Below, one piece after another: positions 882 to 8,000 of a stretch of DNA of 64,000 bases (positions within the stretch are counted from its first letter, which is position 1; each line of letters begins with the position of its first letter). Below the pieces are notes generated by a model that made no database searches, had not been told where the DNA came from, and worked only from the letters and a program-made list of their open reading frames with translations. The DNA is from an uncultured Verrucomicrobiae bacterium (GTDB taxonomy: Bacteria > Chlamydiota > Chlamydiia > Chlamydiales > Rhabdochlamydiaceae), in the NCBI GenBank assembly GCA_963818965.1, contig CAWFUG010000011.1, positions 320,001 to 384,000 on the forward strand, read 5' to 3'. The translations under genes and the position numbers were made by a program.

Positions 882-2330
882 ATGAGTACTCGTTCATTAT
901 CTTCTAGTCAAAGCCCATGTCAGGGCTCCTCTTATTCCTCTAGCCCTAGATCTGCAGAACCGGGATCTGCAGAACCGGCAAACTCCCCCACTCTTCAACG
1001 ATTATCTCTCTTTCCAGGACCCTATGAGCCTTTTTCTAAAGAGCTCTCTCTTCTGATTGAGCGAGTAGATCATCTTTATACTCAAGGGCAAGCCCTCTCA
1101 GAAGAAGCGTCTGCAACACTGTGCAGAGATCAGATTCAAAATTGTGCCACGGTAGAAGAAGCTGTCAGTGTTCTCGAAAAAAACTGTACAGGCATCGACC
1201 AAACCATTCTCTACAACCTCATCAATCTAGCGCAAAAAAGCGGCACTAATGCTGAGTTAAACTACCTATTAGCATCAGGGAAAAATGCAAATCTCATCTC
1301 AACTCCCACAGAACAAATCGATCGACTCTATTGGCAAGGAAGACGCCTTCCCCCAGAACAATCCCACGGTGTTTGCGAAAAAATCTTAAAATATAATGAC
1401 CTAGGAAAGGCCTTGAGCTTTTTGGAACGAAAAAATATCGCGGTCGATTTCGATATCCAACAAACCCTTTCTGAGATCGCTTACAACAACGGGGCATTAG
1501 ATGAGTCGCACGCGATCATTGACTGGGGCTTTGAACGAAAAATTAACTGCACTGAATCTTATAAATGGCAAGAGGAGGGAATCCCAGAAAAGCATCTCTA
1601 TCTGCTCAATCGCCATCTCGCAGCGCAAGATCTCCTTTCCCTTCCACAGCGGATCGATGAACTCTTTATGCAAGGAGACCGCCCTTCAAAAAAATTATCC
1701 CTTAGAATCAGTGCGCACATCCGAACCTGTGAGAGCTTAGAAGAGGCGATCTCTTTTTTGGAAATAAGCGATATCAAGATAGATAAGCGGATCTTCGATC
1801 ATCTCATGAAATGCGCTGAAAAGACGGACACATGGGAGCTAGTAGATTGCCTGTTTAAAAATGGAAAAAAAAATCGACTATTGAACTCTAACCATTACAC
1901 GGTATTCATTCGCCTTGCCTACAAAGCCGGTCAATTTAAGAGCGCACAAGAGGGGCTGGATTTGTTACAGAAAGATAGGGTTCCTCTAAACCCTTATAGC
2001 CTCATGACCCTCATGCAATTCGCTGGGAAAACTGGCAATTTTGAAGATTTGAGGCAGCTATTTGAACTGGGAAAGAAAAAGCGAATCGTAAACGACCATC
2101 ACTTTGCCACCTTGATTCATTTCATGCCGCTATCTCAAGAGCAACTCGATCTTCAGGACTTTAGTGAAAACACGAATCCTGTCATCAGCCGAATCGTCGT
2201 TAATAATTTAGTGGAAAGCAATAGACTAGCTGAAGGGCTCCAAGTCCTAAGAAAACGCGCTGCGCAGTCCCTCGCCGCCACCAAGAAGCATCCTCTCTTG
2301 AAACCCCAGTCTTTGATCTACACCACATGA
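882..2330 (+). CDS. PPR-like helical repeat protein, putative secreted effector; N-terminal part of a frameshifted PPR-Smr gene
   Basis: Ser-rich N-terminus; ~35-aa helical repeats (HYTVFIRLAYKAGQFKSAQEGLDLLQKDRVPLNPY / SLMTLMQFAGKTGNFEDLRQLFELGKKKRIVNDH). Collinear with the next paralog until a frame change near 2252-2255. Confidence 0.75.
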   Translation: MSTRSLSSSQSPCQGSSYSSSPRSAEPGSAEPANSPTLQRLSLFPGPYEPFSKELSLLIERVDHLYTQGQALSEEASATLCRDQIQNCATVEEAVSVLEKNCTGIDQTILYNLINLAQKSGTNAELNYLLASGKNANLISTPTEQIDRLYWQGRRLPPEQSHGVCEKILKYNDLGKALSFLERKNIAVDFDIQQTLSEIAYNNGALDESHAIIDWGFERKINCTESYKWQEEGIPEKHLYLLNRHLAAQDLLSLPQRIDELFMQGDRPSKKLSLRISAHIRTCESLEEAISFLEISDIKIDKRIFDHLMKCAEKTDTWELVDCLFKNGKKNRLLNSNHYTVFIRLAYKAGQFKSAQEGLDLLQKDRVPLNPYSLMTLMQFAGKTGNFEDLRQLFELGKKKRIVNDHHFATLIHFMPLSQEQLDLQDFSENTNPVISRIVVNNLVESNRLAEGLQVLRKRAAQSLAATKKHPLLKPQSLIYTT

Positions 2331-2593
2331 ACTATGGAACAGCTCTTTTGGCGACACTGGATCTGAGCAAAACTCATTTTTCTTTTACCGTGATTACAGG
2401 GGTAGGAAAACATGCACGAAATCCTTATTTACACCTGAGAACTAAGCTCCTCCAAGGAATCGAGCAGCATGCGCCCCATCTTGAGACCCAAGTCACCCTC
2501 AAAAATCCAGGACGCTTAAAGATTTCGACAAAAAGAAAGATGGCTCCAGAGACTGGTGGGGCTCAGAAGCGAGAGAAAAGAGCGCGTCATTAG
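2327..2593 (+). CDS. Smr domain plus basic NLS-like tail; C-terminal part of the frameshifted gene starting at 882
   Basis: The same frame upstream reads ...TPVFDLHH-MNYGTALL, then VITGVGKHA and NPGRL (Smr motifs). Ends KRKMAPETGGAQKREKRARH. Highly similar to the C-terminus of the 2745-4622 protein. Confidence 0.7.
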   Translation: MNYGTALLATLDLSKTHFSFTVITGVGKHARNPYLHLRTKLLQGIEQHAPHLETQVTLKNPGRLKISTKRKMAPETGGAQKREKRARH

Positions 2594-7900: not shown

Positions 7901-8000
7901 TACGCAAACGACGACGACCACGACGACGACTCAAGCTAAAAGAGCTCGCGACAATGAAACCATAGCGAGCGATCCACAAGGGAAAAAAGCGCGCCGTTAA
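4935..8000 (+). CDS. Large PPR-like repeat protein (no Smr) with a 33-aa tandem-repeat linker and C-terminal bipartite NLS-like motif; putative effector
   Basis: Same QRIDxL cap and 34/35-aa helical repeats as the two upstream paralogs, in three blocks. Ends KRARDNETIASDPQGKKARR. Confidence 0.75.
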   Translation: MSVNRKSYPNRSKSEHPHPAQASRTRAPHGREENTALAQRIDKLFTLSKKNDTAEYTIDEICVKLNRYDDLKAAICFLEKMGVPMDATILENLMECAARNNDLGALKRLFKMGKDILNDKHRNIFLFHGQRLGCDEVVRENLDFLKNKEIPLGDTYLSSLMNSATRLKDFPIMKRLYKIGEKRGALNEIHKYLYLSFGRRFNYPEVLNKGVSCVASKPSLHIDLLTQLLTFVGESNVNKTKKFEMLQELIQIGKDKKSVTALHQKIFLDSAIKLNHPEVITEGVSFLAYQKINTSPWYLSELMHLTVEYKRFDLLVELFKIGFKKGVSDSNHLNLFRTLAMKFGTEEAEKAEQIIKEEKTPASCKQPSFVLKKEQINKDDPLIQRIDKLLPAPDSKRSRNVSYRIDEVRRHLYECKTLADALSFLEKHHLPIDHITLNALLKCCTKSGSFEYAAYLFDRGNELKLVEIIPHSISFLECAYASGHYACGKEELDRLIQNGEILTPAALHILMKSADKNGDFEELHELYKRGHIMKIITPSHRLFFLLSGCRLERLEVLNEGMSFLENASTPVTPDDLTQLIPFFGNTGNVNLLKILRSGGRNRGILTTEHGKKIRQYIQQIKGDGAPGLPQTVGSTITRRGAPRKQPQPTRPIFETRTQTQPKLTHWSSDEEEGEVREERGPTRPIFETRTQTQPEPTHWSSDEEEGKVREERRPTRPIFETRTQTQADPTHWTSDEEEGEVREERGPTRPIFETQTTTQLDPLPVFPNEESEELSRQMEAAAEFPWFTAIKKLYETGKGKGILTDQHKSLFLFYGKKHGHHEVLNEGVGFLVNEKLLSAKELNELCQFAFKAGNFEALQELMEVAKGRGQATDFFRNQFLTLALDLGHPEAINEGVSFLANKSIPLPAYRLRGLMHIARTCENFEILKELFEIGIERKIINPFEHDNLLLFFGFADELGHAEEAEQIIEKATGQIVRKKTLSSNALSSNTQTTTTTTTTQAKRARDNETIASDPQGKKARR
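6876..7197 (+). repeat. 99-bp intragenic tandem repeat, 3 copies plus a partial
   Basis: Units start at 6876, 6975, 7074 and 7173; they encode PTRPIFETRTQTQPxxTHWSSDEEEGEVREERG with minor variants. Confidence 0.95.

Follow-up and report, generated by a model that had tools for sequence, protein, structure and literature searches.

We analysed a 64,000-nucleotide stretch of the genome of an uncultured bacterium of the Rhabdochlamydiaceae (assembly GCA_963818965.1, contig CAWFUG010000011.1, positions 320,001 to 384,000 of the forward strand), here called the window, within which plain coordinates are counted below. Positions 882 to 8000 carry three adjacent open reading frames (ORFs) on the forward strand, at 882-2330 (482 amino acids), 2889-4622 (577 amino acids, counted from a GTG) and 4935-8000 (1021 amino acids), referred to here as genes 1, 2 and 3. 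Judged from their sequences, the three genes appear to be members of a patchily distributed Chlamydiota family whose proteins join a pentatricopeptide repeat (PPR) solenoid to a nuclease domain at the C-terminus, an Smr (small MutS-related) domain of the N4BP2-like kind known from eukaryotes. A preliminary description of the locus had recognised three adjacent, same-strand paralogs built of alternating 35- and 34-residue repeats, and the ORFs bear this out. Self-comparison of the proteins peaks at a lag of 69 residues in genes 1 and 2, and at 33, 34, 68 and 69 residues in gene 3. In addition, Tandem Repeats Finder reports in gene 2 a 207-bp (69-codon) tandem duplication of two copies, 80% identical, at 3748-4162 on the forward strand, which corresponds to one 35+34-residue repeat pair. 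Because of these 69-residue lags and of this duplication, we take the alternating 35/34 repeat to be real.

All parts of the cluster described here lie on the forward strand. Gene 1 is interrupted: its repeat part (882-2330, 482 codons in frame A) begins with a Ser/Pro-rich N-terminus, continues with PPR-like helical repeats and ends at a stop codon (2328-2330) caused by a frameshift. The Smr part of gene 1 lies in a second frame of 119 open codons (2237-2593), in which the DLH codons occupy 2315-2323 and a basic bipartite-like tail occupies 2531-2590. Residues 3-341 of gene 1 are 46% identical to gene 2, and its Smr frame, with the motifs FDLHH ... ITGVGKHA ... NPG, is 57% identical to residues 482-573 of gene 2. 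Gene 2 (2745-4622) encodes an intact PPR-like solenoid and a C-terminal Smr domain (4356-4619, residues 490-577) with the motifs FDLHE ... VTGIGNHS ... NQG, in which the DLH codons at 4398-4406 include D504 and H506. Its frame is open from 2718, and the first canonical start is the GTG at 2889, which yields the 577-residue form. Gene 3 (4935-8000, 1021 residues) is composed of blocks of PPR-like repeats, an acidic tandem-repeat linker, a poly-Thr stretch and a basic bipartite-like tail (7938-7997). Its similarity to gene 2 is confined to the repeat region, and it has no Smr domain, as had already been stated of the member starting at 4935. The linker, of 33-residue acidic, Thr/Gln-rich units, is encoded by a 99-bp repeat present in 3.3 copies with 92% matches (6876-7202, Tandem Repeats Finder). 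A sigma-70 consensus sequence (TTGACA-17-TATAAT, 4862-4890), which matches at 12 of 12 positions and is to be read as a consensus match only, precedes gene 3 by 45 nt, the corresponding aligned stretches ahead of genes 1 and 2 giving a weaker sigma-70 match. PADLOC assigned no family to any of the five proteins submitted.

Relationship of the repeats to PPR proteins

Homology and predicted structure together support the placement of the window repeats with PPR proteins, as strongly diverged members. Gene 2, when searched against 401 Chlamydiota genomes, has matches in 19, and of 12 ORFs extracted from relatives in the phylum, 11 pass a Pfam PPR cut-off, the lowest E-value being 1e-245. The last 340 residues of gene 2 match the relative L009 (Pfam PPR E 2.5e-79) with a BLASTP E-value of 1e-25, the 35- and 34-residue units of gene 2 pairing one-to-one with the repeats of L009; a second relative, L012, is matched at 3e-15. 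Among 1.84 billion representative proteins, there are 145 matches at E <= 1e-3 and 23 at E <= 1e-10. We scanned 21 of the 145 with Pfam, chosen as the top ranks and those reaching the C-terminal domain: 17 pass a PPR cut-off and three pass nothing. One protein name was found among ten cluster members of these relatives, and it reads 'pentatricopeptide repeat protein'. With the NCBIfam PPR model TIGR00756, gene 2 scores 20.8 bits for a cut-off of 20, gene 3 and a fourth paralog on contig C1 falling below it.

An AlphaFold2 (AF2) model of gene 2, computed from a 22-row alignment (mean predicted local distance difference test score, pLDDT, 79.1), comprises about 14 helix pairs, with a repeat period of 34-35 from residue 256 on, and an alpha/beta domain that begins at residue 490. 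All top-ranked Foldseek rows for this model are PPR proteins, the best being 5i9g_C (E 2.2e-10) and the second 8r6s_G, which is PAP2 (pTAC2); a designed PPR protein bound to single-stranded DNA, 5orq_A, is also among the top matches. VIA-align gave Z 18.7 for 6een_C, Z 17.1 for 4pjr (root-mean-square deviation, rmsd, 2.0 over 172 residues) and Z 15.4 for 4ozs (rmsd 1.9 over 173 residues). Tetratricopeptide repeat (TPR) proteins score about Z 13, as compared with 15-18.7 for PPR proteins. In the ESM Atlas, the closest neighbours are clusters of algal PPR and PPR/Smr proteins (score 0.93), a result that serves as a lead only. An origin of the genes by transfer from algae was considered and not retained, these algal rows being no more than such a lead.

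Several results speak against the PPR placement. None of the four window proteins reaches a gathering cut-off in Pfam, which therefore reports in them neither a PPR nor an Smr domain; the best row is PPR_2 for the last repeat of gene 2, at 26.6 bits for a cut-off of 30, and sub-threshold Ank_2 rows appear in three of the four. One of the 21 scanned database matches, P0023, passes Ank_2 (27.5 bits, cut-off 27.3) and not PPR. A hidden Markov model of canonical 35-residue repeats misses the window repeats (best domain E 0.027), although this model was built from 26 repeats of L012, L016 and L018 and is too narrow to serve as a register. Finally, position 5 of the last seven repeats of gene 2, as aligned with L009, reads N, G, R, T, T, T and Q. 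An ankyrin reading of the window proteins was also examined and rejected, as the model consists of plain helix pairs and no ankyrin entry occurs among 50 VIA rows. The PPR and Smr assignments of the preliminary description are thus upheld by homology and by predicted fold, though Pfam alone calls neither domain; of the profile checks it had called for, those with Pfam failed on both domains, while the NCBIfam PPR model is just passed by gene 2 and the Smr family profile described below matches N4BP2.

In the plant PPR code, T, N or S stands at position 5 of a repeat and N, D or S at its last position. G, R and Q at position 5 of the gene 2 repeats are presumably not code residues, and the window repeats keep the canonical specificity residues in part only. 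They are divergent rather than near-identical, the closest pair being the 80% identical (at the DNA level) copies of the internal duplication, and these two copies differ at specificity position 5 in both repeat types, with further changes spread along the unit. From such sequences, a programmable, base-by-base reading by the window copies seems doubtful.

The C-terminal Smr domain

The assignment of the gene 2 C-terminus, as modelled, to a true Smr fold that keeps DLH, TGxG and NxG stands, because a sequence profile of the domain matches N4BP2, its motifs vary little or not at all, its predicted fold is that of an Smr domain, and the Smr domain of MutS2 heads the structural comparison. The profile, built from 13 C-terminal domains (two from the window and 11 from relatives), matches three N4BP2 Smr chains of the PDB at E 1.5e-7 to 3.8e-6, and MutS2 at 0.57. 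Across the 13 domains, there is little or no variation at D, H, G-x-G and N-x-G. The Smr family profile (A1) also matches the Smr frame of gene 1, with E 8e-29. The AF2 model of the gene 2 domain (pLDDT 85) has the order beta-alpha-beta-alpha-beta-beta. When it was compared with 48,161 chains in VIA, the top row was the Smr domain of Thermus MutS2 (2zqe_A; Z 10.8, rmsd 1.6 over 71 residues), two Z units above the next, and the list also contains N4BP2 (8.4 and 8.0), YdaL (7.8), the Smr region of PAP2 (7.8) and SmrB (7.0). Seven of the first ten Foldseek rows are Smr domains.

Three observations temper this assignment: Foldseek finds nothing for the domain model at E <= 1e-3 (best 2.2e-3), Alba/IF3-C-like folds score near the lesser Smr matches in VIA, and Pfam PF01713 (Smr) gives no row for the window proteins and sub-threshold rows in two of the 12 relatives. 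The fold comparisons nevertheless come out as had been anticipated for both halves of the protein, with PPR proteins ranking above TPR proteins and an Smr fold at the C-terminus. The DLH and TGxG motifs are needed for cleavage in SmrB, Cue2 and SOT1. The window domain shares its fold and motifs with N4BP2, MutS2, SmrB and YdaL; it differs from these Smr nucleases in being fused to a PPR solenoid and in having E or H, instead of G, after DLH.

Basic tails and a fourth paralog

The fourth paralog, on contig C1 of the same genome, encodes 907 residues, again with no Smr domain, and has the same basic tail as gene 3. A pattern of KR, about 10-13 residues and a basic cluster ends the Smr frame of gene 1, gene 3 and the C1 paralog. 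The ending [KR][KR]AR[RH] is found in these three paralog ORFs and in no other ORF of at least 60 residues genome-wide. The looser bipartite-like basic tail is present in 14 of 1717 mechanically defined ORFs of at least 150 residues, some of which are surely spurious; the end of gene 2 has no such tail. Two tails resembling bipartite nuclear localisation signals (NLSs) had been pointed out before, and they correspond to those of the gene 1 Smr frame and of gene 3, the likeness being judged against the consensus and not by a predictor. Two further long ORFs of this genome (designated G000), at G000:C9:334574-336373 (600 residues) and G000:C8:331435-333936 (834 residues), end in bipartite-like basic tails, and it is possible that their products are further nucleus-directed proteins.

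Distribution among Chlamydiota

The Smr family profile matches 30 of the 400 genomes scored, in 24 of 212 genera (the set comprises 401 Chlamydiota genomes, one of which was not scored in this survey). The distribution of PPR-Smr genes is therefore a patchy, accessory pattern, and the survey across the phylum that had been suggested thus recovered the Smr subtype well beyond this genome. The subfamily of the window is confined to this species, as only the window proteins themselves and P0002 were found among 5.8 billion clusters. Used as a single query, gene 2 retrieved no related locus among the genome contigs searched; L009 used in the same role retrieved three loci, all in Chlamydiota/Chlamydiae metagenome-assembled genome records.

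The site of the cluster points in the same direction. On its left lies the 3' part of ndh, encoding an NDH-2 type NADH dehydrogenase (1-741, forward strand; Pfam Pyr_redox_2 and NDH2_C), and on its right a comEC-like gene (8056-9588, forward strand; Pfam Competence, E 3.9e-36). In all three family relatives examined (G143, G248 and G275), ndh and comEC abut with nothing between them. Because the two genes directly adjoin in these relatives, the cluster with its three paralogous genes is a 7.3-kb insertion (742-8055) that separates ndh from comEC and is specific to this lineage. In a genome of the same genus (G355), the comEC match is split into two open frames (G355:C11:236-1838) at the very start of a contig; since comEC lies there at the contig edge, G355 is uninformative on the junction.

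The family is expanded in another Chlamydiota genome, G271, which has 11 Smr profile matches, ten of them within about 33 kb, and thus at least ten tandem PPR-Smr paralogs (loci L032 and L033 at G271:C1:2736000-2773500, and L034). Some of these paralogs are truncated or contain stops. Their ORFs comprise 118 canonical, near-identical 35-residue units, in which T occurs 62 times, N 55 times and S once at position 5, and N 63 times, D 47 times and other residues eight times at position 35. One of the pairs TN, NN, TD or ND occupies positions 5/35 in 109 of the 118 units. The resulting code string differs from paralog to paralog. The repeats do not represent a pure two-residue polymorphism, because variation at positions 18, 30, 31 and 33 equals or exceeds that at the code positions. 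The earlier proposal of a diversifying family is therefore supported in the phylum, most clearly by this tandem expansion with its different code strings. The accompanying idea of repeats programmable in the manner of transcription activator-like (TAL) effectors fails for the divergent repeats of the window and is seen in part in G271.

TAL effectors read DNA and activate transcription. The likeness of the G271 genes to them is one of analogy, not of homology, and lies in near-identical tandem repeats, two positions with a small residue set, paralog expansion and one string per paralog; the difference lies in the variation of the G271 repeats at other positions, and in the window repeats not being near-identical. 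A last relative of note is P0009 (937 residues; cluster mate P0147), in which the PPR tract is followed by a protease domain of the CE clan (RickCE/Ulp1 type) and which also matches Smr weakly, an architecture that looks effector-like.

A host-directed role and its alternatives

The genome encodes SctV (one FHIPEP/SctV match, E 3.3e-221; SctV was the only component searched), and the N-termini of the cluster proteins, by their sequence, are Ser/Pro-rich or basic with no visible hydrophobic signal. The reading that we prefer, and to which we give an even chance, is that the cluster proteins would be host-directed, exported through the type III system, nucleic-acid-binding, nucleolytic where an Smr domain is present, and nuclear in the case of the tailed members. 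According to this model, the proteins would leave the bacterium by the type III system; the solenoid would hold a single-stranded nucleic acid, by analogy RNA; in the members that have an Smr domain, this domain may cut the bound strand through its D-L-H/TGxG site; and the basic bipartite tail of three of the four paralogs could direct import into the host nucleus.

It is tempting to extend this model to the whole Chlamydiota family, as host-delivered, programmable RNA nucleases in which two code residues per repeat of the PPR array would spell the target of the fused Smr domain, tandem paralogs such as those of G271 having different targets. The window cluster would then be a fast-evolving branch whose nuclear import tail directs it against host RNA in the nucleus, the members that lack Smr serving purely to bind. 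Such a family would be the counterpart of TAL effectors at the level of RNA. We propose this extension tentatively, as a possibility that we would sooner doubt than accept.

Alternatively, the solenoid could bind proteins or DNA, and the Smr domain could nick host nuclear DNA or dock on ribosomes. The Smr domains of N4BP2 and MutS2 have been described as DNA-nicking, and it is to N4BP2 that the Smr profile is closest and to MutS2 that the predicted fold is closest. The non-canonical residues at the specificity position of the window repeats, the single-stranded DNA-bound protein 5orq_A among the top fold matches, the TPR proteins at Z about 13 and the NLS-like tails are all compatible with a DNA nuclease or a protein scaffold. 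Conversely, the G271 relatives carry canonical RNA code pairs in most of their units (109 of 118), PPR matches stand above TPR ones in the fold comparison, and SmrB, itself in the fold list, cleaves mRNA on collided ribosomes according to the abstract of PMC10897456. We consider an activity on DNA or on proteins distinctly unlikely.

The cluster proteins might also have a housekeeping role in the bacterium itself, processing its RNA or rescuing stalled ribosomes like SmrB and MutS2. Smr proteins are indeed reported to act on bacterial ribosomes, again in the abstract of PMC10897456; no Pfam Smr match over the cut-off was found elsewhere in this genome, and the export of the cluster proteins is deduced and not observed. 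Such a role fits poorly with a gene family present in 30 of 400 genomes and with a cluster that is missing from the ndh-comEC junction in the three relatives. The tandem expansions, the nuclear-import-like tail, the CE-clan protease fusion of a relative and the eukaryotic type of the nearest Smr domains likewise argue against a role inside the bacterium, and we regard a housekeeping function as very unlikely.

Lesions in the two Smr-bearing genes

The host-directed reading has to be reconciled with the state of the genes, both Smr copies carrying a lesion in the assembly. The preliminary description had two paralogs ending in an Smr domain; this is correct for gene 2, and in gene 1 the domain lies in another frame, behind a frameshift that had been missed. 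The likely site of the frame break is an A-rich tract at 2245-2256 (forward strand) whose length differs among sources. P0002, which comes from a different contig and is the only close database relative, matches gene 1 exactly as far as ...LQVL and then continues in the third frame. A contig from metagenome run X2 (151 nt, covering 2216-2365) has a one-base length difference in the tract, at about 2249-2255, that makes the repeat and Smr frames continuous. Because it shows four substitutions with respect to the window besides the tract length, this contig represents another strain. Three sources thus give three tract lengths, of which only that of X2 is in frame. A programmed -1 frameshift was rejected, as no X XXY YYZ heptamer was seen by eye between 2237 and 2330 and a natural length variant is simpler.

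These three lengths, one of them in frame, could also reflect a contingency locus in which changes in tract length would turn the Smr domain of gene 1 on in some cells or strains and off in others. Against this, the tract is short, the depth of the X2 contig is about 2, that contig comes from another strain, and a homopolymer assembly error is possible. A switch of this kind appears most improbable to us.

In gene 2, the start is affected. An alignment of the three upstream regions places the ATG of genes 1 and 3 opposite a TTT, followed by an ATT at 2745, and there is no ATG, GTG or TTG in the frame between 2718 and the GTG at 2889. An AGG is common to the three regions, a few bases before the start position. 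AUU start codons give weak initiation, and a start of gene 2 at this ATT would be weak. The sequence between 2745 and 2888, upstream of the GTG, encodes a Ser-rich region homologous to the N-terminus of gene 1. Low-complexity N-termini had been reported for the cluster; gene 1 indeed has a Ser/Pro-rich one, and in gene 2 the Ser-rich stretch precedes the first canonical start, the missing ATG having been overlooked. Ten sequencing runs contained matching reads, each with a small share (0.05-0.14) and none of them an RNA run; contigs from these runs cover parts of the stretch, with 2742-2745 among the uncovered positions. A contig from run X1, 92% identical, spans 2746-2896 without gaps, and by hand count six of its nine listed differences fall at third codon positions of the upstream frame, with five synonymous and three nonsynonymous codon changes. 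This bias towards third codon positions suggests that 2745-2888 is, or recently was, translated.

With lesions in both of the genes that bear an Smr domain, decay has to be taken seriously as a rival to the host-directed reading: the cluster may consist of relics of a eukaryote- or paralog-derived insertion that is being lost, its proteins being functionless. The frameshift in gene 1, the absence of an ATG, GTG or TTG at the paralogs' start position in gene 2 and the other out-of-frame length at the gene 1 tract in the P0002 assembly would all be expected of relics. The same holds for the ratio of nonsynonymous to synonymous substitution rates between the copies of the gene 2 internal duplication (0.65-0.77), and for the restriction of the subfamily to this species. 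The in-frame variant of gene 1, moreover, rests on a single X2 contig at the depth given above. Nevertheless, frames of 482, 634 (gene 2, stop to stop), 1021 and 907 codons are still open in the four paralogs, and these are mutually only 29-46% identical, yet the catalytic motifs and the tail are kept. The existence of a natural in-frame variant of gene 1, the third-position bias upstream of the GTG and the perfect consensus promoter before gene 3 also argue against decay, and we regard it as unlikely that the genes are mere relics. On balance, we consider the gene cluster to be a real set of diverged, partly impaired members of the Chlamydiota PPR-Smr family.

Comparison with known systems

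PPR-SMR proteins, among them pTAC2/PAP2, are described as essentially eukaryotic in passages of a 2013 review, which names one bacterial exception, Legionella longbeachae, ascribed to gene transfer (PMC3858433). Llo1404 and Llo2643 of this species carry PPR domains, as stated in part of PMC2824747, and a passage of PMC11338181 mentions PPR for L. longbeachae alone. The available text of PMC4029402 holds that bacteria lack PPR proteins and that the motif is exclusively eukaryotic. Portions of other studies describe RipL, a Ralstonia type III effector with four predicted PPRs and a predicted C-terminal NLS, whose authors doubt a role in RNA binding (PMC10654456), and two Mesorhizobium effectors with a PPR-like solenoid before a unit resembling an RNA-dependent RNA polymerase (PMC13667924). 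In the titles, abstracts and passages (supplements aside) of the papers found to mention both pentatricopeptide proteins and chlamydiae, no chlamydial PPR protein is described. As far as literature searches reach, the Chlamydiota PPR-Smr family is therefore undescribed, its architecture being known from plants and noted once in Legionella. The rarity of bacterial PPR proteins had been asserted in ignorance of the L. longbeachae PPR-SMR proteins and of RipL.

Plant and algal PPR-SMR proteins (pTAC2/PAP2, SOT1 and GUN1) resemble the window genes in having, behind a PPR tract, an Smr domain at the C-terminus that carries DLH and TGxG. For PAP2 the likeness extends to the second rank among the Foldseek matches of the gene 2 model and to the Z of 7.8 between its Smr region and the domain model. 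Unlike these proteins, the window genes are bacterial, have no organelle context and possess basic, nuclear-import-like tails, and their repeats form a 35+34 double unit that is uncalled by Pfam and whose specificity residues are partly canonical. L. longbeachae is, as passages of PMC2824747 have it, likewise an intracellular bacterium of protists with eukaryote-like PPR proteins; it belongs to another phylum, and Llo1404 and Llo2643 are likened here to the window proteins by description and not by sequence. RipL resembles them in combining predicted PPR motifs with a predicted C-terminal NLS in an injected protein, and differs in having four motifs only, no Smr domain and a large unrelated helical middle, according to the same portion of PMC10654456.

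Other features of the window

Beyond the cluster, the window encodes two tandem genes that match the Legionella major outer membrane protein family (11036-13147; E 1.9e-30 and 1.4e-34) and tandem paralogs with eukaryote-type protein kinase domains (24065-25645 and 25841-27445; Pfam Pkinase, E 1.7e-23 and 5.1e-19). Three consecutive ORFs of 757-798 residues on the reverse strand (37547-44970) are without a Pfam family at E <= 1e-5. An 883-residue ORF at 54236-56887 has a ubiquitin C-terminal hydrolase (UCH) domain (E 3.1e-22), and it is followed, at 57042-63999, by four ORFs without a Pfam family.

Implications

The prevailing view takes PPR proteins to be an invention of eukaryotes that serves their organelle RNA, and a recurrent chlamydial PPR-Smr family runs counter to this notion. 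The family also provides a fresh data point in the debate on gene exchange of chlamydiae with algae or plants. The code strings of G271 make target prediction directly testable. If the host-directed reading is true, an ancient group of intracellular bacteria would have yielded a new class of effector candidates directed at host RNA, and with them a natural source of compact, code-readable RNA binders already joined to a nuclease.

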